From a virus (Duplodnaviria > Caudoviricetes): DNA of 54,478 nucleotides. Under the pieces are notes generated by a model. That model worked only from the letters and a program-made list of their open reading frames with translations. It was not told where the DNA came from and ran no database searches. A program made the position numbers and the translations under genes. The stretch lies in IMG/VR virus record IMGVR_UViG_3300049982_000333, positions 1-54,478 of that record. One strand, written 5' to 3'. Below are positions 3,436-54,478 of the stretch, piece by piece (position 1 is the first letter of the stretch; every line of letters starts with the position of its first letter).

Positions 3436-3475
3436 CTGCGGCGCTCTGGTCTGCACAACGAAGGAGAGGAACCTC

Positions 3476-3697: not shown

Positions 3698-3732
3698 CCT
3701 GCGAAAACGTGCGATTCCTGGCCCGTAACATC

Positions 3733-3778
3733 TGGCATGCGCATGACCAGATCGCTATGATGAAGATATAAGAAAAAG
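3733..3778 (+). promoter_or_regulatory. Repeated early promoter, copy 1
   Basis: TGGCAT-N17-TATGAT; 25-mer GCTATGATGAAGATATAAGAAAAAG identical to 11766-11790. Confidence 0.75.
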
Positions 3779-4941: not shown

Positions 4942-6120
4942 GTGATCCGCATCGTGCACACCCGGGCCGAAGGCACGCTGATCGAAGGTTCCCGCAAGGG
5001 CGACGGCGTATGGGAGATCGTCCGAACCCGCGGGTTCCACTGGTCGCGCAACGTCGGCCTCTACATCCGGAACTCCCAGGACAAGGCCGCGGACCGGTGG
5101 ACGATCGACCGGGCGGTGCAGGCACTGCGCGACGCCGGGTTCGAGGTCCAGGTGGAGATCGACGACGTGACCCCGGGCCGGTCGTTCGCCGAGGCCGAGG
5201 CCGACCGCGTCGACCGCGCGGAGGACCGGGCCGACCGGTTCGGCGAGCGCGCCGACCGCAACGCCGCCTCCGGCGACGCCCGGTGGGAGGCGACCCGCGA
5301 GCGCATGTCGCACCTGCCGGCCGGGCAGCCGATCCTCGTCGGTCACCACAGCGAGGGCAAGCACCGCCGCCAGCTCGAATGGGCGGACAACCAGGACCGC
5401 AAGGCCATCGGCGAGCTGAAGAAGGGAGAGTACTGGGCAGGCCGGGCGGCCGCCGCCGAGAACTACCAGCGGCACCGGGAGGACCCGGGCACCACGCGCA
5501 GGCGCATCGAGAAGCTGCAGGCCGACCGGCGCCGCATCGCCAGTGTCCTTGAAGACGGCTGGAAGGAGACGGTCGACCCCGACGAGGAGGCCCCCGAGGG
5601 GGCCAAGGTGCTGCACGCCTGGGACGACGGCTACCGCATGTGCCAGGTGTGGCCGACCGGCGACCACAAGGCCTCCCGCGAGGCCGATCTCGCCCAGCTC
5701 GACGACCAGATCGGCTACTGGCAGCAGGTGCTCGCCAAGGCCGAGCAGCGCGGCGTGAAGCTGTGGAGCAAGGCCGACTTCGGCAAGGGCGATTTCGTGA
5801 TCTACCGCGGGACTGCGGTCGAGGTGATGCGGGTCAACGCCAAGTCGCTGACCGTCCCGTGGGGGCACTACTGGGCGGGGTCGGGGCTGCCGGTGGTGAC
5901 GGTCGAGTACGCCAAGGACGCGCACCGCCCGGGTGGCCGCATCTACACCGACACGCTGCCGTACGACAAGGTGCAGGGCCGCCTCAGCAGGGACGAAGCC
6001 ACAGCGCCCGGTCTCTCCCGGCCGCAGGTCCGCGAGCTCATCGCCAAGAGGGTTCGCGAAGCGCGGGGCGAGCAGCCGGAGCCGGCTGCGGAGGAGGCGC
6101 CGGCGGCAGAGCAGTCCTGA
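4942..6120 (+). CDS. DUF3560 domain-containing protein
   Basis: Signature GQPILVGHHSEGKHRR and RRRIEKLQADRRR. Confidence 0.85.
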   Translation: MIRIVHTRAEGTLIEGSRKGDGVWEIVRTRGFHWSRNVGLYIRNSQDKAADRWTIDRAVQALRDAGFEVQVEIDDVTPGRSFAEAEADRVDRAEDRADRFGERADRNAASGDARWEATRERMSHLPAGQPILVGHHSEGKHRRQLEWADNQDRKAIGELKKGEYWAGRAAAAENYQRHREDPGTTRRRIEKLQADRRRIASVLEDGWKETVDPDEEAPEGAKVLHAWDDGYRMCQVWPTGDHKASREADLAQLDDQIGYWQQVLAKAEQRGVKLWSKADFGKGDFVIYRGTAVEVMRVNAKSLTVPWGHYWAGSGLPVVTVEYAKDAHRPGGRIYTDTLPYDKVQGRLSRDEATAPGLSRPQVRELIAKRVREARGEQPEPAAEEAPAAEQS

Positions 6121-6170
6121 CAGCAGGAGGGGTGACGCGGGATTTGGCGTGGTCACCCCCGCCTCACGCA

Positions 6171-6208
6171 TGGTTATCAAAGGCATACGACGATATGATG
6201 GAGATATG
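6171..6208 (+). promoter_or_regulatory. Repeated early promoter, copy 2 (degenerate, leaderless)
   Basis: TGGTTA-N17-TATGAT-GGAGAT-ATG; start codon sits at the expected +1. Confidence 0.6.
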
Positions 6209-6646
6209 AATCTAGCTACGTGCACGTACCAGGAAGTCACGCCGGACATGGGCATCCCGGTACGCACAACCGTCGGTGCACCGCGCTTCAAGCTCGCCTA
6301 CCAGCTCGCCGGCCACGCCAAGCTCATCACCCCCACCCGGCCGATGCTCGGCCTCCCCAGAGGCGCCTACGAGGTGTCCTACCGGGGTCTGTTGAACGCA
6401 GCCGGCGCCGAGCGGATCCACGCCGAACTTGCCGCGATCCACGCGGCCGCCGGGCGGCCCGCGGCGGCTCTCGTGCTGCTGTGCTTCGACCGGCTCGACA
6501 AGCCTGGCGAGTGGTGCCACCGGTCGATGTTCGCCGACTGGTGGCTAGAGCACACCGGCCAGGAAGTACCCGAGCTCGGCGCCACGCCTGGCGTGCCCGC
6601 CGCCGAGCCCGCTCCCAAGGTCAACCCGCCGTCAGCGCTGTTCTGA
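6206..6646 (+). CDS. DUF488-like protein
   Basis: LVLLCFD...WCHRSMFADWW motif. Confidence 0.7.
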   Translation: MNLATCTYQEVTPDMGIPVRTTVGAPRFKLAYQLAGHAKLITPTRPMLGLPRGAYEVSYRGLLNAAGAERIHAELAAIHAAAGRPAAALVLLCFDRLDKPGEWCHRSMFADWWLEHTGQEVPELGATPGVPAAEPAPKVNPPSALF

Positions 6647-6705
6647 CCGCGACCGAACCCGGGGCGGCGCCCCACGCGCCGCCCCCATCATTCGAGAGAG
6701 ACGTG

Positions 6706-7449
6706 ATGATCGACACCAGCCCCATTGAGCTGACCGACGAGCAGTGGACTGCGCTCCTGGCCGACTACGACGGCATGGACAGCTTCACGGTCAAGGACTT
6801 CGACGACGTGGAGCAGCTGCTCGTCCTGGCCCGGGAGAAGCTCGGCAACCTTCCCGAGGGCCACCCGCTCAGCTGCCCCGAGCTGCTGCACATGGCGCTG
6901 TGGGACACCAGCGACGCCAACAACTGGTCCCTCATGATGACCGTGGACCTGGCCGGCCTCCGGCTGGCAACCGACCACGTCAAGATCGGCCCCTTCCGGG
7001 ACGCCAACGAGACCCCCGGCGAGCCGGTCCTGCGTGCCGTCCTCGGCGAGCTCCTCGACCACCGCAACCGCCTGGTGCGCAAGCTCGCCCGGCACTTCAC
7101 CGCGACCGGCGTGGGCGCCACGTCCGACCCCGGCAACGGCACGGTGACCCTGGACATCGACACCGCGGCCGGGACCCTCCACATCGACCTCAGCGAGGAG
7201 TACGGCGAGGCCCTCGGCGGGCTCCTCTTGGACGACCCCGCCCACTCGGACGGCACCGGGCACGAGCTCGACATCGTCCTCGCGCATGAGCAGTTGCAGG
7301 AGTGGGCCGGGAGCCAACTCGACGCGAACGACATCTCGTGGTTGGACGACCAGATCCCGCACTCCAGCATCCCGGAGGCCATCAACACGATCTGCACCCA
7401 GCTCGACGACGAGGACCAGGAGGACGAGGACGAGCCGACGATCGACTGA
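6706..7449 (+). CDS. Acidic hypothetical protein
   Basis: Long ORF with GC3 bias and D/E-rich C-terminus. Confidence 0.7.
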   Translation: MIDTSPIELTDEQWTALLADYDGMDSFTVKDFDDVEQLLVLAREKLGNLPEGHPLSCPELLHMALWDTSDANNWSLMMTVDLAGLRLATDHVKIGPFRDANETPGEPVLRAVLGELLDHRNRLVRKLARHFTATGVGATSDPGNGTVTLDIDTAAGTLHIDLSEEYGEALGGLLLDDPAHSDGTGHELDIVLAHEQLQEWAGSQLDANDISWLDDQIPHSSIPEAINTICTQLDDEDQEDEDEPTID

Positions 7450-12330: not shown

Positions 12331-12516
12331 ATGGTCGGCCAGCAGCGCACCACCGCGCACTACGAGCGCGACTGCCCAATGTGTGGCGTCAGGATCGTGG
12401 AGGAGCGTGACCGCGAGTACGCACCCATGGTCGGCGCGTTCTGGCACTGCGGCCAGCGTGTGGACATCGGGCGGACGATATACCGCGCGGATGGCACCGC
12501 GATCCACAACCCCTGA
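12331..12516 (+). CDS. Small zinc-ribbon hypothetical protein
   Basis: CPMCG...WHCG; GAAGGG RBS. Confidence 0.55.
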   Translation: MVGQQRTTAHYERDCPMCGVRIVEERDREYAPMVGAFWHCGQRVDIGRTIYRADGTAIHNP

Positions 12517-12538
12517 CCCGACCTCGGTCTGCGCGGCC

Positions 12539-12574
12539 TGGACATCGAACCTTAAGGACCTTAAGGTATTGCTC
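12539..12574 (+). promoter_or_regulatory. Leaderless promoter with tandem palindromic operator CCTTAAGG x2
   Basis: TGGACA-N17-TAAGGT-N7-ATG; CCTTAAGG at 12550-12557 and 12559-12566. Confidence 0.7.
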
Positions 12575-13213
12575 ATGACCTGGAACGAAATCGGCATCGA
12601 ACCGGCCCGGAAGAAGCTCGGCGCCCTCGTGGCCGCCGCCCAGCGCGGACAGACCACCATCCTCACCCGCAACCGGACTCCCGCCGCGATGATCACACCG
12701 GTTCCCCTGCACCTCGCCCTCCGCGACATCAGCGTCGAAGCCATCGACCAGGGCAACTGGCGCGACCAGGCCATCCAGGACTGGATCGAAGCCGCCGCCG
12801 AGGAGGGCTACGGCTTCACCGTCCGGCGCACCCACTACTCCGGCGACGTGCTGGCCGTCCTCGCCGAGGACAAATGGATAGGCGACGAGATCACCCAGGG
12901 CGAGCCGCTCGCCCTGCTCGTCGACCGCACGCACCCGGATGTCGCAGAGGGCGATGGGGACACGCTCGACATCCACCCCGGGCTCATATCCCTACGCGGG
13001 GACCCCGGGCCCGCGGACGCCGTTCAGAGCGACGGCGACATCCCCGACCGGCCCGCCACAGCAGACATGGTCGTGGCCGGCCGATTCCGCGTCCAACGAA
13101 ACGGCTCGGGCGGAATCAGTCTCGACTGGGGCGACGGCGAGATCGACATGGGCGACGACGACGCCGAGCAACTCGCCGCAGCTCTCGCGACCGTACGTCG
13201 CCAGCCGCGATGA
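12575..13213 (+). CDS. Phd/YefM antitoxin-like DNA-binding domain fused to an acidic C-terminal region
   Basis: N-terminus IGIEPARKKLGALVAAAQRGQTTILTRNRTPAAMITPV matches the Phd fold pattern. Confidence 0.7.
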   Translation: MTWNEIGIEPARKKLGALVAAAQRGQTTILTRNRTPAAMITPVPLHLALRDISVEAIDQGNWRDQAIQDWIEAAAEEGYGFTVRRTHYSGDVLAVLAEDKWIGDEITQGEPLALLVDRTHPDVAEGDGDTLDIHPGLISLRGDPGPADAVQSDGDIPDRPATADMVVAGRFRVQRNGSGGISLDWGDGEIDMGDDDAEQLAAALATVRRQPR

Positions 13214-13295: not shown

Positions 13296-13366
13296 GCGCC
13301 GGAGTTGTGACGGCCGCATGCCCCTCTTCCCGAGGGGCGGACCAGGTTCGAGTCCTGGCCGGCGCT
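13296..13366 (+). tRNA. Non-canonical tRNA-Gly(TCC)-like RNA
   Basis: Acceptor GCGCCGG/CCGGCGC plus U73; anticodon arm CCCCT-CTTCCCG-AGGGG; T-arm CCAGG-TTCGAGT-CCTGG; weak D-arm; A8 and C37 deviations; no encoded CCA. Confidence 0.7.
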
Positions 13367-13401
13367 CGGCTTGCACACCGCCAGAGACCCGGGGGCTGGC
13401 T

Positions 13402-14745
13402 ATGTTCCACGGATCTATCCCAGCTCCGCTCCGCTCGATCATCTACGAGCACGCAGGCACCTGGCCAGGCGAGGACATCTACGTCGGCTGCAGCGGCAAC
13501 TTCACGATCGAGCGCGTGCTCCACGCCCGGTTCGGCGCCACCCGCGCCGTCCACGGCAACGACGTCCAGGCTTACTCGAGCGCCCTCGGCTGGTGGCTGG
13601 CCGGCCAGCCCGTCCCCTTCACCCTCCGCGAAGACCACGAGGAAGCCCTCGGCTGGCTCAGGCCCTACCTCGACGACCCCACAGACCTGCTCGCCACCCT
13701 GATGCTCGGCACCCGGTTCCTGCAGTGGGTCGGCAAGACCGGCCCGTACTACCGGCGGATGCTCGCGGCGACGCAAGATCAGTGGCCTCGCATGCACGAC
13801 AAGACCGCGACCAAGCTGCGGAACCTGACCGTACGGCTCGGCTCCTACTTCGCCGGCGACGTCCGCGACTACCTGACGCAGGTGGTGCCCGACACCGCGC
13901 CGGTCGTCATGTTCCCTCCGTTCTACGGCGGAGACTACGAAGCGCAGTTCGCGCCGATCGATGCCGCGTTCGACTGGCCGGCCCCGACGTTCGACGAGCT
14001 CGACGAGGACGGGAAAGAGCAGATCATCGCCCAGGTCCGCGAGCGTCCCAACTGGATGCTCGGCCTGCACATCGAACGGCCCGAGCTGCGCGCCCAGCTC
14101 GCCGGCGTCGTCCAGACCGCCAACCGCGGCCTGCCGATCTACGTGTACGCCGCGTCCGGGCCGCGGCGCATCGTCCGCCCGCACCAGACGACCGCCGGCA
14201 TCCCCATGCCGAAGATCGGTCCCGACGACGTGCTCGGCGACCGCATGGCGCTGCACATGCTCAGCGGCGGCCAGTTCGCCGCGATCCGCTCGCAGTTCAT
14301 GTCCAAGACGATCAAGCCGGGGTCGCCTTTGCTGGCGTGTGGCGTCTCCGTTGACGGGAAGATCGTCGGCGCGTTCGCGTTTCTGCCGCCGAAGTTCGAG
14401 CCGACCTCTGCCTACCTGATGTCGGACTTCCCGGTGTCGTGGAGCCGGTACCGGCGCCTGGCCAAGCTGATCGTCATGGCCGCCAACACCAGGGAGGCGC
14501 AGCTGCTGCTGCAACGCTCGCTGTCCCGCCGGATCACCGACTGGTCGACCACGGCGTTCACCGACAACCCGAACTCGGCGAAGTACGGGCGAGGCATCCC
14601 CGGCGTCAAGCTGGAGAAACGCACGGAGCCCGCGGCTGACGGCGTCCACCGCTACCAGCTGCAGTACGGCGGCCCGATGGGTCAGCGCACACTGGCCGAA
14701 GCGCTCGACCTGTGGAAGCGCAAGCACGGCAAGGACACCAGATGA
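13402..14745 (+). CDS. Putative DNA-modification/antirestriction enzyme: adenine-MTase-like N-terminus plus GNAT(Mom)-like C-terminus
   Basis: DIYVGCSGNF (motif I-like), HGND, VVMFPPFY (degenerate DPPY); C-terminal GVSVDGKIVGAFAF...YLMSDFPV...RLAKLIVM...TTAFTDNPNSAKY resembles a GNAT fold. Confidence 0.6.
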   Translation: MFHGSIPAPLRSIIYEHAGTWPGEDIYVGCSGNFTIERVLHARFGATRAVHGNDVQAYSSALGWWLAGQPVPFTLREDHEEALGWLRPYLDDPTDLLATLMLGTRFLQWVGKTGPYYRRMLAATQDQWPRMHDKTATKLRNLTVRLGSYFAGDVRDYLTQVVPDTAPVVMFPPFYGGDYEAQFAPIDAAFDWPAPTFDELDEDGKEQIIAQVRERPNWMLGLHIERPELRAQLAGVVQTANRGLPIYVYAASGPRRIVRPHQTTAGIPMPKIGPDDVLGDRMALHMLSGGQFAAIRSQFMSKTIKPGSPLLACGVSVDGKIVGAFAFLPPKFEPTSAYLMSDFPVSWSRYRRLAKLIVMAANTREAQLLLQRSLSRRITDWSTTAFTDNPNSAKYGRGIPGVKLEKRTEPAADGVHRYQLQYGGPMGQRTLAEALDLWKRKHGKDTR

Positions 14746-15683
14746 CCGACACCGCCTCGACCACCCCCCGCCTGCGCCCTCGCATCGTGCGTCGTGACCC
14801 CCGTCAGCTCACCCGCCTCCCGGTCAACGCCCGCTTCATGACGAAGGAGAAGTACGACCGGCTGGTCGCCAACATCAAAGACGACGGGTGCCTCACCAGC
14901 GTCCCTCTCGTCTACGGCGCCGGCGAATACCCCGAGGGCCAGGAGCTGATCCTTTCCGGCAACCACCGCTGCGACGCAGCCGTCGACGCCGGCGTGTTCG
15001 AGGTCGACGTCATGCTGATCGAGGACAAGGAGGAGAAGCAGCGGCTCATCGCCCGCCAGCTGTCGCACAACGCCATCGAGGGCGAAGACGACGACGCCAC
15101 CCTCAAGCAGTTGTACGACCAGATCGATGACGTCGACTGGCGGGCCTACTCCGGCCTCGACGACGAGCGGCTGAAGCTGCTGGCCGAGGTTCAACCCGAG
15201 GGACTGTCGGAGGCGAACCTGGATTTCGCCACGGTGCAGCTCATCTTCCTGCCGGCCGAGCTGGAGGCCGCCCGCGCCGCGTTCAACGACGCGAAGTTCG
15301 GCCAGGATGAGACCTGGCTCGCTGCTATCGCCGATTACGAGCCCACCCTTGACGCGCTCAGCTCCACCCACGCCGCCCACCGGGTCACCAACGTGGCCAC
15401 GGCCCTGCACGCCATCCTGGCCATCGTCGAGCGGCACCTGGACGACCTCCAGGCCGGATACACCGGGCCCGACGGCGAGGCGATCCATACGGGGCGCGTG
15501 GGCCTGGAAACCGTGCTCGGAGCGCGTACTCTGCCCGCCGGCGCGGCCGTGACCATCAACAAGGCGATCGCACGCGCGGAAGGGCTGAAGGAGATCCCCC
15601 ACGGTCAGGGCTATCTGCTCCTGGAGCGTCTCGCCGGCGAGTACCTGTCGGGGCCCACCCCGACCCCTGCCGAAGCGCGATAG
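14742..15683 (+). CDS. ParB/Srx-like domain protein
   Basis: NARFM...LVANIKDDGCLTSVPLV...ILSGNHRCDAA...QLSHNAIEGEDD; ATGA coupling to upstream gene. Confidence 0.8.
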   Translation: MTDTASTTPRLRPRIVRRDPRQLTRLPVNARFMTKEKYDRLVANIKDDGCLTSVPLVYGAGEYPEGQELILSGNHRCDAAVDAGVFEVDVMLIEDKEEKQRLIARQLSHNAIEGEDDDATLKQLYDQIDDVDWRAYSGLDDERLKLLAEVQPEGLSEANLDFATVQLIFLPAELEAARAAFNDAKFGQDETWLAAIADYEPTLDALSSTHAAHRVTNVATALHAILAIVERHLDDLQAGYTGPDGEAIHTGRVGLETVLGARTLPAGAAVTINKAIARAEGLKEIPHGQGYLLLERLAGEYLSGPTPTPAEAR

Positions 15684-18241: not shown

Positions 18242-20137
18242 TTGCCGTCATTCCGCTCTGCCACTCAGGCGTCATCCGGCACGGCAGCGTCCTTCTCGGG
18301 CAGCAAGCCCGCCGGCACCATCCAGGGCGACATGCTGGTGCTGTGCCACACCGCGGACCTCGGCACGCTCGCGGAGATGGGCACCCCAACGGGCGGCGCC
18401 GCCTGGCAGCTGCTGGACTCAGCGCAGTGGCCGACCGCTACCGGCGCGGGAATGAAGCTCTGGTGGAAGATCGCCGGATCGTCTGAACCCTCCACCTACG
18501 GGCTGACCCAGAACTCGGGTGCGGACGGCACGGCCACGATCGTCTGCGTTCAAAGCCCGGGTGCGGGCACCCCGGTTGTCGCGCACACCGGCGGCACGAC
18601 GCTCGCGAGCAGCATTCCCACGCCGTCGACGACCCCGAACGGGGCCACCGACTTCGAGATCCGGTTCGTAGGCGCGACCAGCGGCAACGGGTCGGCGACC
18701 ACGTTCACGCCCCCTGGCGGATTCACCGAGCGGTCGGACGTCACCTCGGGGACGCAGTACGCGCCGCAGTCCTGCGCCACTCGCACCCTGTCCAGTAGCG
18801 GAGCGACGGGTACGCAGAACTTCACGTCGACGAACACCCTGGCGAGCTACTTGGGGTTCACCGTCAACATCGGCTCTGCCGGCGGTGGCGGCGGCACCCA
18901 GGTGCAACCGTCCGTTCGCTCGGTTTCCACGGCTTCGGGGAACCTGGTGGCCTCGTACACGGTTGCGAAGCCTGCTGGTACGCAGCCCGGTGATCTGATG
19001 TTCTGGGCACAGTCGTTTACGGCCGCGGGTTCGAATCCCGGAAACAACGGCCCTCAGGAAGGCGAGTTCTGGGCCTTCTTCGCGCACAACAGCGACATCC
19101 CGAACACGATGAGTGTTTGGTGGAAAATCGCTGGGCCAAGCGAACCAGCCACGTATACGGTTGGAAACTTTTCCACGACTGAACGTAGCTCGGTTGTGCT
19201 AATAACCGTCAAGGATGCTCCGACTGACTACAGCGGCTACCCATTCCAGCGCCCACCAAATGTAACGAACGAGACTACCTCGGGTGGATCGAATCTTGGC
19301 AGCATCGTAAGTCCGTCCTTCACGCCACCTGACGGCCTGACGCTTGATCTCCGAATTGTTACCTGTGACGGGTCGGCGTCAGCACGTACGTGGACGCCAC
19401 CTGCCGGATACACAGAGGTGGCCGACATTCATGATGCCGGTAACCGAACTGGTGTGACGGTCGCCTGGAAGCAGCTGTCAGGGACTGCTCCCACCGGGAC
19501 GCAAACGTTCACGGCTAGCAGCGCGACGATGAACAGCGTCTGGACTGCCGCTATTGGCATTCCGGCTGCTCCCGTGTTGATTGCCCTGAATGATGCCGGA
19601 TCCGCAGTCGAGAGCCTCAGCGTCGTCCAGGCCACGCAGAAGACCCTGACTGACACCGGCAGCAGCACAGAGACGCTGTCGGCGGTGACGACTGCGGCCC
19701 TGGCCGATGCCGGGTCAGCGGTCGAGCAACTGACGGTCACCGCCACCTCGGCACTGGCCGACACGGCGACCGCAGCCGAGATGCTGACCGCCGCGGCGAC
19801 CGTGGCGCTCGCTGAGACAGGATCGGCCGCCGACGCCATCAACGCCGGCATGCCCGTCGCCCTGGCCCAGGCGGGCACCGCGGCCGACGCGCTCACCGTC
19901 CAGGCCACCGTCACCCTGACCCAGGCGGGCACCGCCGTTGATGCGCTGACCGTCACCGTGCAGGTCGCACTCTCGGATACGGCGAGCGCAGCCGACGCGT
20001 TGATCGGCGTCCTGATCGAAGACATCACGGTCACCGCAGGCGCCGCGCAGCGCGGCTGGTCGTCGGGGGAACCGGCCAGCTCCTTCACGGCGGGCATGCC
20101 CGTCCGCGGCTGGTGTGCGGGGCCGCCCACAACCTGA
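18242..20137 (+). CDS. Fibre/adhesin-like protein: two homologous beta domains plus acidic 18-aa repeats, cassette A
   Basis: Duplicated KPAGTxxGD...WWKIAGxSEPxTY...TPPxGxTExxD; about 8 LxDxGSAxExLTV repeats. Confidence 0.65.
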   Translation: MPSFRSATQASSGTAASFSGSKPAGTIQGDMLVLCHTADLGTLAEMGTPTGGAAWQLLDSAQWPTATGAGMKLWWKIAGSSEPSTYGLTQNSGADGTATIVCVQSPGAGTPVVAHTGGTTLASSIPTPSTTPNGATDFEIRFVGATSGNGSATTFTPPGGFTERSDVTSGTQYAPQSCATRTLSSSGATGTQNFTSTNTLASYLGFTVNIGSAGGGGGTQVQPSVRSVSTASGNLVASYTVAKPAGTQPGDLMFWAQSFTAAGSNPGNNGPQEGEFWAFFAHNSDIPNTMSVWWKIAGPSEPATYTVGNFSTTERSSVVLITVKDAPTDYSGYPFQRPPNVTNETTSGGSNLGSIVSPSFTPPDGLTLDLRIVTCDGSASARTWTPPAGYTEVADIHDAGNRTGVTVAWKQLSGTAPTGTQTFTASSATMNSVWTAAIGIPAAPVLIALNDAGSAVESLSVVQATQKTLTDTGSSTETLSAVTTAALADAGSAVEQLTVTATSALADTATAAEMLTAAATVALAETGSAADAINAGMPVALAQAGTAADALTVQATVTLTQAGTAVDALTVTVQVALSDTASAADALIGVLIEDITVTAGAAQRGWSSGEPASSFTAGMPVRGWCAGPPTT

Positions 20138-20148
20138 GCTGAGGGGGC

Positions 20149-20436
20149 GTGGTGCTGACAATCCCGGCCATCTCGGTGGAGTACCTGAAAGTCCCGGTCA
20201 CCGGCCCGGCGAACCTCACTTCGTACGCGGTGGAGATGGCTGTGCTACCGGACGGCCAGGACCCGGTGACGGCGGATTGGAAGGCCGCCACCTGGATCGG
20301 CTCATACTCATCCGTGCTGGTCGGCCCGGGGACGACCCTGCCGTTGACCAAGGGAGTCACCTACGGGGCATGGGTGCGGATCACCGCGAGCCCGGAGAAG
20401 CCGGTGCTTTCCCCTGTCCTGGTCCATGCCACGTGA
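20149..20436 (+). CDS. Small fibre adaptor protein, cassette A
   Basis: Paralog of 25305-25598 (VEMAV...DWKAATW...LVGPG...YGAWVRIT). Confidence 0.6.
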   Translation: MVLTIPAISVEYLKVPVTGPANLTSYAVEMAVLPDGQDPVTADWKAATWIGSYSSVLVGPGTTLPLTKGVTYGAWVRITASPEKPVLSPVLVHAT

Positions 20437-47487: not shown

Positions 47488-48654
47488 TCAGACGTCCGGA
47501 CAGTCCAGCCAGACGCTCTGCCCGCCCGGGCCCACGGTCATCCCGAACCGCTCACGGCCTGGCGCGCCGGCGCGCAGCCACCGTTCGTACGCGGCCTCCA
47601 GCTCATCCCACAGTGGCCGGCCACCGCCCTGCATCACCTCCACCTCGCCGCTCTCCTCCCAGGCGCACACCAGCGCCCAGTCATCGCCGTGGAGGTGACG
47701 CAGCCGCATCGTCCACGCCTGCTCGCCGTCGATGGCCTCCCACCCGGCCCAGGTGACCACCAGGTCCGGCGCCACCGTAGCGAGGTAGAGCCCGAACCCT
47801 TCTATCCACGCGGGGGACAGGCCCTGCGGATCCAGCCGGGTCGTCGACGTCGCCCCCTCGCCCGGGTACGGCGGCCAGCTGCGTGGCGCCCGCTGGGCCC
47901 GCATCATCATGAACGTGGCCGCGCCGGCGAACCGGCCCACCGCGGTGCCGCCGTGGCGCACGTGCAGCTGCAGCTGCTCGCCCCACTGCCCGTGCGCGGG
48001 CATCCACGGGGCGACGATCACCCCGCCCGGGCGGGTCTGCTGCACCCACGCGTAGGGGATGTCCCGGACGCCGCAGGTGACGTGCACCCGGTCGTACGGC
48101 GCCCGGGCGTCGTGGCCGAGCGCGCCGTCCCCCGTGATGACCGTGGGGCAGTGGCCGGCCGCTGCCAGAGCGTCGGCCGCCGCGGCGGACACGCGGCTGT
48201 CGACCTCGACGGTGACGACGTGATCGTCGCCGAGCCGCCAGCTCAGCATGGCCGCGCTCCACCCGGTGCCCGTGCCGATCTCCAGCACCCGGTTGCCGTC
48301 GGCCACATCCAGCAGCCGCAGGAACTCCATGGCGACGTGCGGGCACGAAAGGCTCGAGCTCGGCGGGCTGGAGGTGTCGGCGACGTCGGCGGTTCCGTCG
48401 CCGCGTTGGGTGATGATCGTGGTGTTGGAGTAGACCGCGTCCCACCACGGCCGAGAGTCACGGTGGCGGTCGATGATGTGCTCGGGCCGGTCGTCCATCG
48501 GCTCGGCCCAAGCCCGCGTCGGGACGAAAGCGTGGCGAGGCACAGCGCGCAGGCCAGCCATCCACGCGCGGCTGTCTCGATCGGTGGGTTCGAGGACGCC
48601 GGCAACGGTCAGGTAGCCGACCAGGGCGTCAAGGTGTTCTCGTGTGGCGATCAT
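47488..48654 (-). CDS. Protein-L-isoaspartate O-methyltransferase (PIMT) homolog
   Basis: AVPRHAFVP, SSSLSCP, VLEIGTGTGWSAA, GDGALG, PYDRVHVTC. Confidence 0.9.
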   Translation of the reverse strand: MIATREHLDALVGYLTVAGVLEPTDRDSRAWMAGLRAVPRHAFVPTRAWAEPMDDRPEHIIDRHRDSRPWWDAVYSNTTIITQRGDGTADVADTSSPPSSSLSCPHVAMEFLRLLDVADGNRVLEIGTGTGWSAAMLSWRLGDDHVVTVEVDSRVSAAAADALAAAGHCPTVITGDGALGHDARAPYDRVHVTCGVRDIPYAWVQQTRPGGVIVAPWMPAHGQWGEQLQLHVRHGGTAVGRFAGAATFMMMRAQRAPRSWPPYPGEGATSTTRLDPQGLSPAWIEGFGLYLATVAPDLVVTWAGWEAIDGEQAWTMRLRHLHGDDWALVCAWEESGEVEVMQGGGRPLWDELEAAYERWLRAGAPGRERFGMTVGPGGQSVWLDCPDV

Positions 48655-49067
48655 GGCAGCTCCTTCCGCGGCTGGCAGGTGACCATGGCCGTAGACGTTG
48701 CTTCCCGCGCCGCCAGGCCGCACTGCTGGGCGAGCTCTTCGGCTGTCTTCCGGATCAGCGCCACTGCGGCGGCGGCGGTTTCCGCCTTCTCCTCGACGGT
48801 CTCCGCGAGTTCGCGGAACTGTTCGACGACCGCCTCATCTAGGGTCTGCTGGAGGCGCTCCTGAAAGATGCTGATCACCGCGTGGCCCATGGCTCGGGGG
48901 TCGCTCACTCGCCCGCCGGTCACCTCGTCGTAGACGATTGGGACCTGGCCTATCAGGAACTGGTAGTCGGCGAGCTCGCGCTGCACTGCATCGCGATTCA
49001 GGCTGCCGTCTGGGTTCTCGACCAGGTGCTGCCAGAACCTGGTGTACGTCTGCTCGTAGTCGGACAT
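48651..49067 (-). CDS. Hypothetical protein
   Basis: GAGGA RBS; ATGA overlap with PIMT. Confidence 0.7.
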   Translation of the reverse strand: MSDYEQTYTRFWQHLVENPDGSLNRDAVQRELADYQFLIGQVPIVYDEVTGGRVSDPRAMGHAVISIFQERLQQTLDEAVVEQFRELAETVEEKAETAAAAVALIRKTAEELAQQCGLAAREATSTAMVTCQPRKELP

Positions 49068-49092
49068 CAGCCCTCGTCCTCTCGTTGATCGA

Positions 49093-49305
49093 TTACTTGC
49101 CGCCGAAAGCCCGCGGCCGGCGACCCGTGCCACCGCACGGCATGCACGGCCCGACAGCGCCGGACAGCGCACTCCGCCGCTCGCCGGAACCCCGGCACGG
49201 GGAGCACCACCTCCGCGGGTACCGAACCCGGTCACGGACGATCACCCAGATCGCGACGATGACGATGCCGGCGAATATGAGAGCGCCCTCGGTGAACTGG
49301 TCCAT
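49093..49305 (-). CDS. Small membrane protein with DnaJ-type CxxCxGxG zinc finger
   Basis: TM segment, then CSPCRGSG...CMPCGGTG. Confidence 0.7.
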   Translation of the reverse strand: MDQFTEGALIFAGIVIVAIWVIVRDRVRYPRRWCSPCRGSGERRSALSGAVGPCMPCGGTGRRPRAFGGK

Positions 49306-49306
49306 G

Positions 49307-49612
49307 TCACTTCCCGACCAGCGCCTGGACGTCGTCGCGCCGGTACCCGTAGGTGCTGCCACGTGCGGAGGCCGCCGGCCACGGCCGCGCCTGTGGTAGC
49401 CCATACGCCGCCAGGGCGCCTGCTAGGTCCTCCGTGAACCACCGGCCATACGTGTGGTGGTCGGCCGCCTGGAGCCGGCCGAGGATCACGTGGGTAGGCA
49501 GGACGGTCTCGCCGGGCCTGTAGGTGGCGTGGACCGCGGCGAGGTGACCGGTGCGCGGGGCCGGTGTGGCGCGGCGGCGGAACAGGCGGGTGATTCCCAG
49601 CATCGCCGTCAC
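49307..49612 (-). CDS. Stand-alone TraB-like winged-helix protein
   Basis: Aligns by eye to the TraB C-terminus (TxxILxRL...LxxxLxxxG...GYxRxDV). Confidence 0.55.
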   Translation of the reverse strand: MTAMLGITRLFRRRATPAPRTGHLAAVHATYRPGETVLPTHVILGRLQAADHHTYGRWFTEDLAGALAAYGLPQARPWPAASARGSTYGYRRDDVQALVGK

Positions 49613-49764
49613 TTCTTCTTCCGCTGCTTGATGCCGCCGATCTTCTTCTGACCGGCCCGGGTGAACGACACCTTGCATACGTGGGTGAGGGGGTTGTTGT
49701 AGCCCTTCCTGCACTTGCCACAGGTGAATAGCTTGACGACAACTTTGATCTTCTTGCCAGCCAC
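49609..49764 (-). CDS. Small basic zinc-finger protein
   Basis: AAGGAG RBS; CGKCRKGYNNPLTHVC; Lys-rich. Confidence 0.6.
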   Translation of the reverse strand: MAGKKIKVVVKLFTCGKCRKGYNNPLTHVCKVSFTRAGQKKIGGIKQRKKK

Positions 49765-49804
49765 GGTGGGCTCCTTCCGGGGGATTCCGTGGGGTCGAAA
49801 CGGA

Positions 49805-49937
49805 CTCAAGATCTTGAGGGGGAGGGTCCAGAATCTTGAGGATCAAGGCCAAATCTTGGGGCCCCGTCCAGGACCCTGGAGGCGGTGCCCGACACCGCTG
49901 ACCTGCACTCTGGAGGGCTCGGCGTGCTCTGGAGGGC
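49805..49937. repeat. clt-like array of 8-bp repeats downstream of traB
   Basis: YCTKGRGG at 49812, 49834, 49854, 49875, 49909, 49928; palindrome CTCAAGATCTTGAG at 49805-49818. Confidence 0.6.
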
Positions 49938-49938
49938 A

Positions 49939-52068
49939 TCACTGGAACACCACCGTCCGCCCGTTCTTCAGCGCATCGAGCGCATCCTCCACGTCGGCCC
50001 TCACGTAGCCGTTGCGGGATTTCTTCTTGCCCGGCTCCTTCTCGTCGTGAGGGTCGGACAGCCACAGCCCATCCGGCCCCACCCCCAGCGGCCGCAAGAG
50101 CGCGGACAGCTGCGAGGAGTCCAGCGCCGCCCACTCGTCCCACTCGTGCAGCCGATCGAGGATCGTCTCCGTCCACATCCGGTCCGTCTCGCCGAACACG
50201 TCCAGCAGGCACAGCAGTAGCCGGCCCAGGGGCGAGGCGTCGGCGTGCGGCAGCGTCCCCGCGGCTTCACGCAGCCGGTAGGCCGTCGCGATGATCTGAT
50301 CGACCTCGCCAGCCTCGTCGTCCAGGTAGAACGAGCGCATGAACACTGGGGTCGCCCCGTCGGCGTCGAGCCACCCGAGCCCGCGGTAGGCGGGTGCCTT
50401 GGGGATGTTGGAGGCGTCGTACCCGTCGCCGGCCTTGCCCTCGCCGAGGATGGCGTTGGACGAGGTCGGCCCGTCGCATCGCATCGCCCACCGCATGCTT
50501 ACCGACGCGCGCAGCGTGCCGGGCACCACGTCCACCGTGGTGCGCTGGGTGGCCAGCACGAGCAGGATCCCGGCGGCCGGCCCGCGGGAGGCCAGGTCGG
50601 CCATCAGTCCGGCGATCTTCTCGCCGAGCTTGTCCTCCTTGATGGTGGTGTACCACCGCAGCTCATCGACGATGATGAACTCGAGCGGCATCTCTCCCAG
50701 CAGGTCAGCGCCCAGCTTGCGCCGCTTCAGCTCGGAGAACCGGTTGTACCGGGCCTCCATCTTGGCGACCATGCCTTCGAGGAACGCGGCCAGGCGCTCG
50801 GGCTGCCGCTTGAAGTAGGTGTGGCAGATGCAGGCGAACGGGTCGAAGTCGGCGGCGCCCTTGCCGTCGATGATGTGCAGTCGGACCCGAATGTCCAGCG
50901 CGGCCGCGCAGGCCAGGTTGGTGACGCCGATGCTCTTCCCGGTCCGCGGGGCGCCGCCAAGGAGGAACGAGGAGTCCACGATCTTCGGGGCGACCATCTG
51001 CTGCCGGGCGTCCCGCCCCAGCGGTACGCCCTCGCTCCAGATGTCCAGCGGGGTCTTGCGGTACAGCAGCGGTGACTTCAGCGTCGCGGCGAACGGGTTG
51101 CCGTTGGCACAGCGGACGGTGACCCGGCCCTCGTGCCCGTCGACGGGCTGGATGTCCAGCTGGATGTAGCCGACGCCGAACGCTGACGCCAGCTCGTACC
51201 GCCGGGCCATCGCCGCCTTAGCGGTCACCGCGGACGGCAGCTCGACCACGGCCTTCCACGCTTCCCCGTCCAGGACCACGGGGCCGACGACCCGGATCAC
51301 GTCCGCCTTGCCGAGCTTGGCGTCCGAGAACGCGTGCCGGATCACGCTCGACGATGGCCGCTTACCTGCGGGTTTACGGCCCTTCTCATCCTCGGTGGTG
51401 ACGCCGCGGATGTTCTTCTCGACCAACCCGGCGATGATGAACGCCAGCGTCGCGACGAAGATCGGGGATGGCCACCACCACGACCAGGCGCCGGCCATGG
51501 CGGCGGCGTACAGTCCGGTGATGATCCACCGCCGCTTCCGCGCCGCTTCGATCTTGTCGACTGACACGCCGTCGCGCATCGCGTAGTCGGTCGCTGAAAC
51601 CCACGCCCACCAGCGCTTCGTCCCACGCCAGCCACCAGCCAGGCCGTACCTGGCGAATCGGCCGCCGCGGCGCGCGTACGGCGCCGACCCTTGAGCGGCT
51701 TCGCCGATGCGCCGGTACAGCTGGTGGAGGGACCTGGGGGAGATGTCGCACTCGTGTGAGGTGCAGGCCCGGCGGACCCGCGGGTCGTCGTGCGGGAGGT
51801 TGCTGGTGAGGTGCTCGAGCTCGGCGATACGCCGGTAGGACAGCCGCCGGGAGATCCGGCCGTACCGGCGGCGCGGCGCCGGTACCTCGATCTCGTCGAC
51901 GACCTCGCCGTCGACGATGCCGTCGAGCTCCTCCAGTTCGCCGCCCGGCTCGGGTACGGCCGGCGTGGAGGGGGTGTCGGGGGTGGCGAGCTCGCGGCCT
52001 TCCGCGGGCGCGCTGGTGTCCTCTCCGTCCTCGACGGGGAGGTTGGGGCGGTGGTTGGGCTGGGTCAC
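49939..52068 (-). CDS. traB: FtsK/SpoIIIE-family conjugative DNA translocase (TraB-like); start may be 52101
   Basis: TM segments, GGAPRTGKS Walker A, IIDGKG, IIVDE Walker B, LATQR, C-terminal wHTH. Confidence 0.85.
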   Translation of the reverse strand: MTQPNHRPNLPVEDGEDTSAPAEGRELATPDTPSTPAVPEPGGELEELDGIVDGEVVDEIEVPAPRRRYGRISRRLSYRRIAELEHLTSNLPHDDPRVRRACTSHECDISPRSLHQLYRRIGEAAQGSAPYARRGGRFARYGLAGGWRGTKRWWAWVSATDYAMRDGVSVDKIEAARKRRWIITGLYAAAMAGAWSWWWPSPIFVATLAFIIAGLVEKNIRGVTTEDEKGRKPAGKRPSSSVIRHAFSDAKLGKADVIRVVGPVVLDGEAWKAVVELPSAVTAKAAMARRYELASAFGVGYIQLDIQPVDGHEGRVTVRCANGNPFAATLKSPLLYRKTPLDIWSEGVPLGRDARQQMVAPKIVDSSFLLGGAPRTGKSIGVTNLACAAALDIRVRLHIIDGKGAADFDPFACICHTYFKRQPERLAAFLEGMVAKMEARYNRFSELKRRKLGADLLGEMPLEFIIVDELRWYTTIKEDKLGEKIAGLMADLASRGPAAGILLVLATQRTTVDVVPGTLRASVSMRWAMRCDGPTSSNAILGEGKAGDGYDASNIPKAPAYRGLGWLDADGATPVFMRSFYLDDEAGEVDQIIATAYRLREAAGTLPHADASPLGRLLLCLLDVFGETDRMWTETILDRLHEWDEWAALDSSQLSALLRPLGVGPDGLWLSDPHDEKEPGKKKSRNGYVRADVEDALDALKNGRTVVFQ

Positions 52069-52093
52069 GCCGGCGACTCCAGGGGCGTGGACA

Positions 52094-52279
52094 TCAGGCA
52101 CCCGCCGGGCGGCGTTTGGCCGGGCCGGGGCGGCGATCGCCTGAGTCCTTGGAGGACCGGGTCATGCCTCGCTGGCGGTCCAGCTCAAGCCAGGAGTCTT
52201 CGGCCTTCTTGAAGGACGGAAGGCCGTCCCCGTGCACCAGGTGGATCGCCCGCTTGTCAGTGTTGATCTTGCGCATCAC
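52094..52279 (-). CDS. Small hypothetical protein
   Basis: GAAGAAGG RBS; GTGA overlap with upstream gene. Confidence 0.5.
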   Translation of the reverse strand: MMRKINTDKRAIHLVHGDGLPSFKKAEDSWLELDRQRGMTRSSKDSGDRRPGPAKRRPAGA

Positions 52280-53769
52280 GCGGTCGCCTTCTTCGTCGCG
52301 TTGAGGAGGGCCCGGCGGGTGCGTCCGTCCAGCTGTTCCAGCCACTCGTTGCGCTTGCGGCGGCCGTACTGGGGGGTGACGCCACCCACCCGGGCAAGCT
52401 CCGCGCCCTTCGGCGCGCGGCGCTCCTGTTCGATCGTCCGCAACCAGTGGCGGCGCATCGCGTCGGTTGCGCTCGCGGTTGCGGTTTCGGTTTCGTCGCC
52501 GGTTGCAGTCCCGTCGTCGGGGTCGTCGTCGCGGAGCGCTGCGAGGACCTCATCCGCGTCCGGATCCGAAACCTCGTCCGCAACCGCGCGGCTGGTTTCG
52601 CCCCGGGTTGCGAAGAGGGTTTCGCTTGCGGCCGCGCGGCCGCCGAACAGCGGGAGCGGGCGGCCGGGGGACGAAACCGCCGCCGCAACCAGATCCGCAA
52701 CCTCAGAGCTGGTTGCGGTAGCGCCTGGCAGCAGGTTTCGTCCGGCGATGAACGCGGCCATCGATGTGACCGCTGCGGACACTTCCCGGTCGCCTTCGTG
52801 CTGCCGGTTGACGGCCTCTGTCCAGTCGCGCATCGCCGCGGCCAGGATCGTGGCGTCGCTGTGCCTGGCCGCGCCAGTGACGGCCGGGTGGTCGAGGTGG
52901 GCCCAGGGCGCGGCCGCGGTCTCCAAGAGGTCGGAGAGGCTGTCGGCGCCGCCGAGCGTCGTCACGAGATCGAGGAGCGCCGTCTGCTTCGTCGTGTCGC
53001 GGGCAAGGTCGGTGTGCTCCACGGCCTGGTCCAGAGCACGGTCACGCTTCCCCAGAGCGCGTCTGAGCTTGCTCTCGGAGGCGCCTGACTGGCGGAGCTG
53101 GCGGACGTTCTTGGTAGCCAAGGCCACGCGGGTCAGCCGGCGGTGCGCGTCCACGTCGCTCGCGGTGCGGTCGCTGACCTCGGCCAGACCGAGGCGCACC
53201 ATCGCACGCTCAGGGGTGAGCCGCCACTTGATGCGGGACCGGCCGGTGAGGCGGTGCCGTTCGATGGCCATGCCGCGCTCCCACAGCCACGCGGCGACCA
53301 GCGGGGCAGCGAGCCGGAACACGGCCTCAGCGAGGCTGCGGGCGTCCATGCTGGACAGCACGGCGGACAGACTCGTGAGGGCCCATACCGCGGCGCCGTC
53401 GATGCCGGCGGAGTGGTTCTCCCGCATGTTGCGGCGTGCCCGCACGGCGCTGGTGACGACGGCAACTTCGATGAACGCGAACAGCAGCAGCTGCAGGGGG
53501 CCGTCGAATCCGAGGACGTCGCCGGAGAACCGCCACATGCCCTGGGCGGACACTCCGGTCGCGATGCTGGCGGCGACGATGGTGAGGATGTCCTCGCCCG
53601 GGCGGCTGGCTTTCGCGACGCGGCCGGCGATGGCTTTCAGGGCACGCTTGGCCGGTCGTAGGAGGATGAGGGTCACCGTCGCTGTCGCGATGATCGTGAC
53701 CCACACAAATTGAGGAACCTGGGCCGCCAACTCTGGCACCCAGGCGAGCCATTCCGTTACGGTCTGCAT
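52276..53769 (-). CDS. Spd/DUF2637-like multi-pass membrane protein with C-terminal HTH
   Basis: About 5 TM segments, low-complexity linker, PKGAELARVGGVTPQYGR HTH; upstream of traB. Confidence 0.65.
   Translation of the reverse strand: MQTVTEWLAWVPELAAQVPQFVWVTIIATATVTLILLRPAKRALKAIAGRVAKASRPGEDILTIVAASIATGVSAQGMWRFSGDVLGFDGPLQLLLFAFIEVAVVTSAVRARRNMRENHSAGIDGAAVWALTSLSAVLSSMDARSLAEAVFRLAAPLVAAWLWERGMAIERHRLTGRSRIKWRLTPERAMVRLGLAEVSDRTASDVDAHRRLTRVALATKNVRQLRQSGASESKLRRALGKRDRALDQAVEHTDLARDTTKQTALLDLVTTLGGADSLSDLLETAAAPWAHLDHPAVTGAARHSDATILAAAMRDWTEAVNRQHEGDREVSAAVTSMAAFIAGRNLLPGATATSSEVADLVAAAVSSPGRPLPLFGGRAAASETLFATRGETSRAVADEVSDPDADEVLAALRDDDPDDGTATGDETETATASATDAMRRHWLRTIEQERRAPKGAELARVGGVTPQYGRRKRNEWLEQLDGRTRRALLNATKKATA
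52439..52740. repeat. Intragenic array of 16 GGTT(G/T)CG heptamers in both orientations
   Basis: Counted directly; groups phased at 12 bp. Confidence 0.8.
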
Positions 53770-53807
53770 TTGATCGGGCCTCTCAACCAGGTCCGGTTTG
53801 TAGAGGA

Positions 53808-53841
53808 CCCCTGCCGGCGAGCCAACGCCGGTGGGGGTTTT
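53808..53841 (+). terminator. Hairpin with T-tract
   Basis: CCCCTGCCGGCG-AGCCAA-CGCCGGTGGGGG-TTTT. Confidence 0.5.
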
Positions 53842-53975
53842 CTGCGGTCAGGGGGTCGGTGTCGGTAGGGGGTCCGGCCGGGGCTCGAGCCTCACGGGGG
53901 CTAAGGCGAGTCACCCGGCCGGACATCTGGTGACCGGCCCGGCGGATGAAGGCGACCCGGGCCGGTCGGCGGGGG

Positions 53976-54296
53976 TCACCCGCCAGTTCGTGGGTTCAGC
54001 TCGGATGGCTCGACGCCTGGCGGTAGTTCGCCGGTCGCGTAGCCACTGCGGTGGGCGATCTCGTCCTGCACGGCGAGCTCCATCATCAGGGACACGACGT
54101 CCTCGCGGGCGATGCTCGGCACCAGGCCGGACGCGCGCTGGGCGTCGGTCAGTACGGCGTACCTGGTGGCCCACCATCGCGGGCCGAGCAACCTGACGTA
54201 CCGGATCCTCCACGCGGGGTAGTCCTGGCTCAAGGCGGCGATCTTCCGTTCCCTGGCCTGGTCGGCCTTTGCCACGCCGAGGTCTGACTCGCTCAC
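53976..54296 (-). CDS. Hypothetical protein
   Basis: YPAWRI...WWATR motif; GTGA overlap. Confidence 0.7.
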   Translation of the reverse strand: MSESDLGVAKADQARERKIAALSQDYPAWRIRYVRLLGPRWWATRYAVLTDAQRASGLVPSIAREDVVSLMMELAVQDEIAHRSGYATGELPPGVEPSELNPRTGG

Positions 54297-54478
54297 GATG
54301 GCCTCGCAGCCAGGTCGGCGATGCTCTCCTGAGTGGCGATCTGCTGGCACACGGCGAGGAGGTCATGGCCTAGGACCACCCGCATGGCCCCCGCCGTCCT
54401 GGCTGAGGTGCTGTACCGCTCCTGCCGGATGGCGAGCAGCCCGTAGCTGAGACGCTGCATAGTCCAGACGGCGGCCAT
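54293..54478 (-). CDS. Hypothetical protein (distant paralog of 53976-54296)
   Basis: Shared W...AxR...RxxG...D...QxxIA layout; at the window edge. Confidence 0.55.
   Translation of the reverse strand: MAAVWTMQRLSYGLLAIRQERYSTSARTAGAMRVVLGHDLLAVCQQIATQESIADLAARPS

Follow-up and report, generated by a model that had tools for sequence, protein, structure and literature searches.

A heptamer array inside an spd-like gene

We examined an array of short repeats in a 54,478-nucleotide stretch of viral DNA (Duplodnaviria; Caudoviricetes), comprising positions 1 to 54,478 of virus record IMGVR_UViG_3300049982_000333 and referred to at its full length as 'the window'. The record is complete and corresponds to a siphovirus-type genome of 54,478 bp. 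The array lies within a minus-strand open reading frame (ORF) near its right end (52276..53769; GC content at third codon positions, GC3, of 0.86), which encodes a membrane protein of 497 residues that is SpdB/DUF2637-like, contains a variable linker and has a predicted helix-turn-helix (HTH) at its C-terminus. Directly downstream is the gene for a TraB-like FtsK/SpoIIIE DNA translocase (49939..52101, minus strand), which matched PF01580 at 2.9e-10 and PHROG 1358, and whose C-terminal winged-helix region could be aligned. The array itself consists of 16 heptamers on both strands (52439..52740), of which 15 are exact copies of GGTT(G/T)CG (GGTTKCG) and one is GGTTGCA, and is located in the 3' third of the ORF, 340 bp upstream of traB. 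It covers the DNA encoding the linker (about residues 343–430) and extends to the helix preceding the HTH. A first-pass annotation of the window had placed the array over the linker and the start of the protein's own HTH; the linker and the preceding helix are indeed covered, but the two predicted HTH helices themselves (residues 455–462 and 466–479) are encoded 3' of the array.

All 15 exact copies were confirmed at the positions and on the strands originally described, as was GGTTGCA at 52501. The copies form three convergent units in which, whichever strand is read, CG(A/C)AACC copies precede GGTT(G/T)CG copies, with junctions of 15, 15 and 26 bp. On the plus strand, unit A (52672..52740) contains CGAAACC at 52672 and CGCAACC at 52684 and 52696 in 12-bp phase, followed (15 bp from the last of these to the first of the G-forms) by GGTTGCG at 52711 and GGTTTCG at 52734. 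Unit B (52567..52624) contains CGAAACC at 52567 and CGCAACC at 52579, followed by GGTTTCG at 52594, GGTTGCG at 52606 and GGTTTCG at 52618. Unit C (52439..52507) contains CGCAACC at 52439, followed by GGTTGCG at 52465 and 52477, GGTTTCG at 52483 and 52489, and the variant GGTTGCA at 52501. The 12-bp spacing previously reported for these convergent blocks applies to 7 of the 10 pairs of same-strand neighbours, with the remaining pairs spaced by 6 bp (2 of 10) or 23 bp (1 of 10). Matching copies in successive units are mostly 117 bp apart.

Exact-match counting identified 25 copies of GGTTKCG in the window, an ordinary number when compared with shuffled sequence (18.5 ± 4.6); 15 of the 25 fall inside 302 of the 54,478 bp. 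Relative to the rest of the window, GGTTGCG/CGCAACC is enriched 221-fold in the array (8 copies inside, 6 outside) and GGTTTCG/CGAAACC 279-fold (7 inside, 4 outside), the outcome of an enrichment test that the first-pass annotation had proposed. A whole-window scan for local clusters of 7-mers ranked these two heptamers second and third, with a stronger cluster formed by four copies of CCTTAAG near 12550. All four copies of this palindrome in the window lie within 300 bp of one another (approximately 12550–12850), inside or beside an ORF at 12383–13213. When the copies of the array were aligned, the 7-bp core contained 1.1–2.7 bits per position, while most flanking positions contained 0.07–0.25 bit and three contained 0.59–0.76 bit. 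Because information is limited to the 7-bp core, the copies are not recent duplications of one another.

In the frame of the gene, the two orientations of the motif encode different peptides, x-(A/E)-T and x-V-(A/S), in agreement with an earlier proposal that selection acts here on the DNA rather than on the protein. Codon usage points in the same direction. Within the array GTT represents 5 of 6 valine codons, versus 27 of 865 (3.1%) in 35 other genes (P = 1.7e-7); the corresponding figures are 7 of 20 versus 76 of 1495 (5.1%) for GCA among alanine codons (P = 3.8e-5) and 4 of 7 versus 93 of 560 for GAA among glutamate codons. GC3 is 0.76 in the array, versus 0.88 in the remainder of the gene. 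Synonymous resampling of the same peptide according to the codon usage of the window (20,000 runs) produced a mean of 0.85 heptamers and a maximum of 5, versus the 15 observed, and shuffling the region's own synonymous codons among positions encoding the same amino acid yielded 4.5 copies per run on average, with no run exceeding 11. The excess of rare codons and the results of codon resampling therefore indicate selection at the nucleotide level, and the conclusion that this selection has acted on the nucleotide sequence of the array, and not on the peptide, is well supported. We regard it as very nearly certain that the array is a real feature maintained at the level of DNA.

The encoded protein, its relatives and their motifs

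Neither the 497-residue protein nor its C-terminal 100 residues matched any Pfam, NCBIfam or PHROG family, and no match of the protein to DUF2637 (PF10935) was observed even at E ≤ 10. Hydrophobic segments are present within residues 20–170 (as read from the sequence by eye, with no tool), and relatives identified by tblastn on Streptomyces plasmids, at 35–42% identity over about 110 residues, are annotated as DUF2637 proteins. A protein atlas positioned the protein near DUF2637 clusters and, more weakly, near an HTH_SpdB_C cluster; we treat both placements as leads only. An AlphaFold2 model of residues 398–497 contains helices at residues 432–449, 455–462, 466–479 and 482–496, corresponding to a predicted HTH at residues 455–479 (ELARVGGVTPQYGRRKRNEWLE; 52333..52407, minus strand). 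The model was calculated with 6 sequences in the alignment, and its mean pLDDT (predicted local distance difference test) is 75, with values of about 90 over the last 60 residues. Foldseek comparison of this C-terminal model with the PDB returned nothing at E ≤ 0.001 (best 0.66), and DNA-binding domains, of the HTH type or otherwise, made up most of the weak top matches (among them sigma region 4, LexA, homeodomains and HMG boxes). The gene adjoining traB would thus combine a membrane domain with a predicted C-terminal DNA-binding domain. In a related viral contig (L083; loci carrying relatives of the genes discussed here are given L numbers), the gene upstream of traB (2899–3738) encodes a 279-residue true DUF2637 protein (PF10935, 1.3e-16) with an HTH-like C-terminus and without a long linker or array. 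A gene combining a membrane domain and an HTH ahead of traB therefore looks like a conserved module, the upstream member of which has been exchanged.

Searching with the N-terminal ~290 residues of the protein identified 213 relatives in genome contigs, 80 of which were kept for analysis. All 80 are from Streptosporangiales, mostly from genera of the Streptosporangiaceae, and the majority are forms of about 410–445 residues. No array is present in the two paralogues of about 415 residues that were read base by base (L028 and L061), whose neighbours look like chromosomal genes. On DNA that appears to be mobile, longer forms contain arrays of other short motifs at the equivalent position of the gene, as the first-pass annotation had supposed that homologous genes might. 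The in-gene motif is CCGTACGG in L005 and L110, CGGTCGCGACCG in L010/L111 (with L109 containing a variant of this type with CGACCAG/CTGGTCG and GTCGCGA repeats) and GGGGACG in L054 and L058. On Thermobispora bispora plasmid NZ_CP039125.1 (L002), about 53 copies of GGTACC, mostly in the form CCGGTACCGG, are found in 1.25 kb (5700–6950); within the homologous gene this field takes up the 3' half, where it is translated into GTGTAGERT repeats, and it then continues for about 400 bp into non-coding DNA.

Genes with an HTH of the window type, identified using the C-terminal 120 residues as query, were present in 9 of 401 family-sampled genomes at E ≤ 0.001 (five of these matches being strong) and in 9 of 401 order-sampled genomes at E ≤ 1e-6; in a class-level sample the same query recovered 1 of 401 genomes, the centre genome itself. 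The gene family was also found on nine viral contigs. Among metagenome contigs the C-terminal 120 residues gave 596 pattern matches, none of which was confirmed, and a tblastn search of 72,556 plasmids with the C-terminal 70 residues gave three chance-level matches in Rhizobium only.

The linkers of six genes could be aligned, and in these the copies lie at homologous positions; within a gene, one orientation is the reverse complement of the other, and the motif differs between genes. In the window and L084, CG(C/A)AACC and GGTT(G/T)CG encode AT/ET and VA/VS, respectively. Some copies in L003 and L004 are CGCTACC and GGTAGCG, which encode AT and VA by means of other rare codons (GCT and GTA); CGACACC and GGTGTCG in L086 encode DT and VS; and CGTCACC and GGTGACG in L087 both encode VT. 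This reverse-complementary change of motif across relatives argues that the peptide suits the DNA, and not the DNA the peptide. The layout of unit B (C-forms, an 8-bp gap and then G-forms) is found at the homologous place in L084, L003 and L086. Genes of a second HTH class have the same architecture, with a 12-bp phase and three convergent units about 105–130 bp apart, and contain GGTCACA (L101 and L113) or GGTCAAC (L112). The single DNA difference between those two motifs replaces Val-Thr by Val-Asn when the copy is in one orientation and by Leu-Thr when it is in the opposite one. In L004 (5030–5120; Streptosporangium sp. CA-135522), the homologous gene is interrupted by a frameshift within the array region, which leaves a 438-residue ORF and a 92-residue ORF with the HTH.

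The motif was also compared with the HTH encoded by the same gene, and the covariation of the two suggested at the outset holds in 13 genes. Arrays of G(A/C)AACC/GGTT(T/G)C are present in all five genes in which the second HTH helix starts with '(T/S)PQYG' (the window, L084, L097, L098 and L099), and arrays of GGT(G/A)NCG, without GGTTKCG, in all five with an 'xS(Y/W)G' helix (L003, L004, L086, L087 and L088). The latter class is best written in this form, with L003, L004 and L088 containing mixtures of GGTAGCG, GGTGGCG and GGTGTCG. 'HPSLAS' is accompanied by GGTCACA (2 of 2) and 'DPAHAS' by GGTCAAC. Between the window and L003, the sole difference in the core HTH is VTPQ versus CVES. Only the C-terminal part (about 80–115 residues) of the proteins encoded at L098 and L099 matches the window protein, their N-termini being otherwise unmatched; they share the same HTH and have GAAACC arrays. 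The linker array and the HTH thus move jointly, as a single cassette. The product of the spd-like gene itself was the sole protein found to be common to the compared array-bearing loci.

Candidate readers of the array

We consider it somewhat more probable than its negation that the array represents a set of predicted binding sites for the encoded protein's own HTH, which would tether the element to the membrane beside TraB for the purpose of spreading or segregation. A membrane tether acting through the encoded protein had been raised by the first-pass annotation, and it is the best-supported reading because of the DNA-level selection, the different motifs of relatives and the association between motif and HTH, from which we infer binding, tethering and a biological role.

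Several points weigh against this assignment. The HTH is taken from a model with a mean pLDDT of 75, built from 6 sequences and without a significant structural match, and its association with the motif comes from 13 mutually related genes. A tree of the 62-residue domain has no resolution inside class I, where independent switches of specificity are not countable. The 'xSY' class has a degenerate motif, with common codons building its GGTGKCG members. TraB is not fully separated from the motif, with four of the five 'PQY' loci having a TraB of the same broad family downstream. Finally, the DNA binding of SpdB2 is described as non-specific in the available text of PMC4447253, and the window protein has no sequence similarity to the SpdB protein of pIJ101 (E = 0.77).

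A different binder would be an unlikely alternative. The sites might be read by a host factor, or by an unrecognised regulator of the element (for example a GntR-type Kor/TraR repressor), in which case the array would serve the traB operon as a field of operator or silencer sites. GntR-family regulators are found near many of the related loci, by annotation for L002 and by similarity for L005, L006, L054, L058, L083, L094, L095 and L103. Several arrays of more distant relatives are palindromic with a GT..AC core (CCGGTACCGG, CCCGTACGGG and CGGTCGCGACCG), a form reminiscent of GntR operators. The position of the array upstream of traB would also suit such a role, with traB being toxic when expressed without regulation (PMC4447253, available text). 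However, neither the window nor a comparison of loci with arrays of the window type revealed a GntR protein or another regulator in common, and 16 sites extending over 300 bp within a gene would be unusual for an operator. A host factor, in addition, leaves unexplained both the different motifs in related elements of related hosts and the tracking of the motif with the gene's own HTH.

It is quite unlikely, in our assessment, that the array is instead a second clt, comprising recognition sequences for the winged-helix C-terminus of the neighbouring TraB. Known clt loci consist of 5–9-bp repeats, direct and inverted, in the tra region, some of them overlapping coding sequence; the available text of PMC3583192 lists three copies of G(C/A)AAC for pIJ101, nine copies of a 9-mer for pJV1 and four copies of TGACACC for pWTY27. 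The pIJ101 repeat is contained in CG(C/A)AACC, and the presence of 16 heptamers in 302 bp at a distance of 340 bp upstream of traB resembles such a locus. A related TraB is encoded directly downstream in four of the five loci with the window type of motif. Furthermore, intergenic DNA after traB in L102 (after 12700) contains CGCTACC/GGTAGCG, a GGTNNCG form that is the same heptamer found inside the spd-like genes of L003 and L004.

The motif nevertheless does not follow TraB. Among 83 loci, only the window and L005 have related TraB proteins, with the viral contig L083 providing an additional example. The TraB of L083 is 71% identical to that of the window and has nearly the same recognition region (DSSQLSALLRPLGV versus DPSQLAALLRPINV), yet there is no motif cluster: its record (54.8 kb, estimated to be 75% complete) has no spd-like gene and contains 16 scattered copies of the motif, versus 17 of a control pattern. 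Conversely, L084/L093 have the motif of the window, but no protein there matches the window TraB. The TraB of L005 belongs to the family of the window TraB (39% identity), yet the in-gene motif there is quite different (CCGTACGG) and traB is followed by TCTACCC repeats of its own.

The classical clt position after traB is, moreover, already filled by separate repeat fields. Just past the traB stop codon of the window (49805..49860) are three copies of C(C/T)CAAGA and a perfect palindrome (CTCAAGATCTTGAG), and a CCCCAAG..CTTGG repeat field also follows the traB of L083. It is probable that the repeats at 49805–49860 represent the true clt, or else an operator controlling the small gene that comes next. 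The fields at this position differ among the window, L083, L005, L102, L103 and L104, each of which has its own; that of L005 (7056–7150, intergenic, after the traB stop) contains (G/C)TCTACCC and inverted copies, and that of L104 (after 11588, intergenic) contains CGTCTAG repeats. Thus, the option of a second clt read by TraB, also put forward in the first-pass annotation, was not supported: the motif does not track TraB, and separate clt-like repeats lie past the traB stop in the window and five related loci. The comparison of L083, L084 and L005 leaves TraB as a less probable candidate for the reader of the array.

An explanation at the level of nucleic-acid structure appears very improbable. 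The convergent repeats might pair into three long mRNA hairpins, or the DNA itself might adopt a cruciform or hairpin structure, in which case the paired changes of motif would be compensatory covariation. The sense RNA of 52430–52750 does fold strongly (−168.8 kcal/mol; z = −5.4, with none of 100 shuffles as stable), versus z = +1.2 for a control from the same gene, and strong folding was also calculated for L086 (−5.7), L101 (−6.0) and L003 (−3.5). The variants in unit B are mirror-symmetric, such that its outer and inner pairs match perfectly. However, folding z-scores for ten homologues extended from −6.0 to +0.2, and no excess folding was seen in the array-bearing L099 (+0.2), L088 (−0.4) and L097 (−1.1); the copies in L088 and L099 are in a single orientation only. 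The spacers are nearly free of information, and a 12-bp same-strand phase would have no role in a hairpin. An Rfam scan of 51800–54478 at E ≤ 1 gave nothing in the array and one weak match outside it (51897–51977). We treat the hairpin potential as a by-product of the layout of the sites, or at most as an added feature.

The absence of any function at the DNA level is extremely improbable and already disfavoured by the resampling and the orientation-specific peptide changes. The array would then be a by-product either of a repetitive, low-complexity linker extended by duplication or slippage, or of rare codons clustered so as to slow translation between domains. In favour of this reading, the spacings of 12 and about 117 bp are divisible by three, three similar stretches of ~39 residues are present in the linker and the in-gene array of L002 is a plain tandem repeat encoding GTGTAGERT. 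Against it, synonymous resampling never reached the observed heptamer count, and neither flanks nor spacers show conservation. If rare codons were all that was required, reverse-complementary Val/Ala codons (GTT and GCA in the window; GTA and GCT in L003 and L004) would not be predicted. A single DNA change leads to different amino-acid changes according to orientation, and the motif field of L002 continues for ~400 bp into non-coding DNA. A small share of the probability falls to none of the readings considered here.

Known systems, gene neighbourhood and a possible role at the membrane

The closest parallel to the proposed recognition of the array by the encoded protein is the SpdA2 protein of pIJ101. 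According to the available text of PMC4170104, SpdA2 binds in gel shifts to a palindrome inside its own coding region, and synonymous removal of that palindrome abolishes binding and lowers segregational stability. The site (sps) is a 12-bp palindrome, repeated two to three times within the spdA coding region, that forces an SRDD/E peptide motif on a poorly conserved part of the protein (PMC4170104). In both cases a gene associated with transfer or spreading has short repeated sites inside its own coding region that shape the peptide; the array in the window lies within the gene of its presumed reader, and across 13 genes the motif is associated with the HTH that the same gene encodes. The two are otherwise distinct. 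No homology was detected between the window protein and SpdA2 of pIJ101 (BLASTP, E = 0.31), and the sps palindrome CGTCACGTGACG has no copy in the window with 0–1 mismatch and 5 with two mismatches (versus 9.0 expected), none of them in the gene. SpdA proteins, as described in that source, have 117–163 residues and an N-terminal binding domain (~40–50 N-terminal residues being conserved), unlike the 497-residue window protein with its hydrophobic membrane domain and predicted C-terminal HTH. Similarly, sps is a single 12-bp palindrome that is present two to three times and is near-invariant, whereas the window contains 16 half-sites in 12-bp phase, organized in three units, and the motif varies between relatives. 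Judged from the sequences, the window appears to follow the logic of SpdA2 and sps without homology, and is not the same system.

SpdB2 of pSVH1, in the account given in the available text of PMC4447253, is an oligomeric integral membrane protein of the spreading machinery; it interacts with TraB, its binding of double-stranded DNA is non-specific, and homologues are reported from actinophages. The spd-like gene of the window, a candidate member of this family, resembles it in its position beside traB and in its build of a membrane domain and a C-terminal domain, and differs in its site array, none being described in that text for SpdB2. Among the publications searched on DUF2637, SpdB2 and TraB/clt (supplements excluded), none was found to describe a site array inside an spdB-type gene. 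The clt loci of pSVH1, pIJ101, pJV1 and pWTY27 share with the window arrays of 5–9-bp direct and inverted repeats in the tra region, in some cases within coding sequence, and they are read by an HTH-type domain of a membrane-associated protein, as is presumed for the window (PMC3583192 and PMC4447253, available text). They differ in that the window array does not track TraB and that the customary position downstream of traB holds a repeat field of its own.

Some plasmid centromeres are also composed of short iterated repeats, including the heptad arrays bound by omega (pSM19035) and parC, which is bound by ParR (R1). Like the array described here, such centromeres contain many short sites in direct and inverted order, and these are bound cooperatively by a small domain encoded nearby. 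In contrast to them, no ParA/ParM-type partner was found beside the window gene, the presumed binder would be anchored in the membrane and the sites are within its own gene. Families of partition NTPases (ParA/ParM) were absent from the called ORFs that were scanned, and no Pfam match to ParA or to an integrase was found among the called ORFs of the window. The sole partition candidate in the window is a protein with a ParB-like nuclease domain, encoded far off at 14712–15683.

The remainder of the record is of the siphovirus type. Its plus-strand genes include those for a large terminase, portal, major head protein, tape measure, tail proteins, endolysin and holins, this part of the record covering 21547–47410. 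The conjugation-type block is on the minus strand at the right end (47488–54350) and contains, in addition to traB and the spd-like gene, genes for a methyltransferase-like protein (47488–48723), a small Cys-rich ORF (49609–49809) and a 124-residue ORF (53976–54350). Modules of this type (TraB-like plus SpdB-like) are elsewhere found in Streptosporangiaceae chromosomes. Its occurrence in a siphovirus-type record is reminiscent of the Streptomyces plasmid-phage pZL12. No relative of the traB–spd block or of the 497-residue protein was found among INPHARED phages by blastn or tblastn.

Additional features were observed elsewhere in the window. Four exact copies of TACCGGCG are present in the 5' part of traB (51710–51884); with one mismatch allowed, this sequence is not enriched window-wide (95 versus 81 expected). 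A tRNA-Gly gene (anticodon TCC; 13296–13367) overlaps the called start of a DAM-like/GNAT ORF (13318–14745), the true start of which is therefore probably further downstream. A 1.3-kb region without a called gene (18837–20149) contains clusters of TGGAAA, AACCGT and GCATGCC, each with 4 copies within 300 bp, and could be a regulatory or origin region.

If the encoded protein does read its own gene, then about 16 cis-acting half-sites would have been written into the least constrained part of that gene, which encodes a disordered linker. The most likely reader would be the C-terminal HTH of the same gene's product, an SpdB/DUF2637-type integral membrane protein acting beside TraB. Oligomers of this protein might bind the three convergent units and thereby fasten the DNA of the element to the membrane next to TraB. 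Such a tether could help to pass DNA to the transfer or spreading machinery, or to retain it in hyphal compartments and spores.

A further-reaching possibility, which we hold only tentatively and regard as doubtful, is that SpdB-like membrane proteins of these actinomycete elements each carry a private 'membrane centromere' that prefers to act in cis, the site and the recognition helix changing together to give a specificity resembling that of incompatibility groups. The DNA for the disordered linker would contain the array of HTH sites, directly ahead (5') of the HTH-coding sequence. With transcription, translation and membrane insertion being coupled, the nascent protein might already keep the gene from which it is made at the membrane. 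As the last part to be synthesized, the HTH would bind the adjacent array and so act preferentially on the molecule that encodes it. Joint change of site and helix could give each element a private specificity, as in incompatibility groups, which would explain the different motifs in related elements of related hosts.

A sequence-specific, membrane-anchored partner with a mapped array would, if this reading is correct, provide a concrete handle on how the TraB/Spd machinery takes up and transports double-stranded DNA of plasmids, AICEs (actinomycete integrative and conjugative elements) or phages in actinomycete hyphae. The comparison of relatives predicts a swap of specificity that would come down to four residues in the protein (VTPQ or CVES) and, in the site, to the base at position 4 (T or G/A). 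The gene would also be an example of a coding sequence with a second, protein-binding code that dictates the peptide and evolves in step with its presumed reader domain. The presence of the module in a tailed-phage record, finally, bears on whether some actinophages may use conjugation-type spreading.

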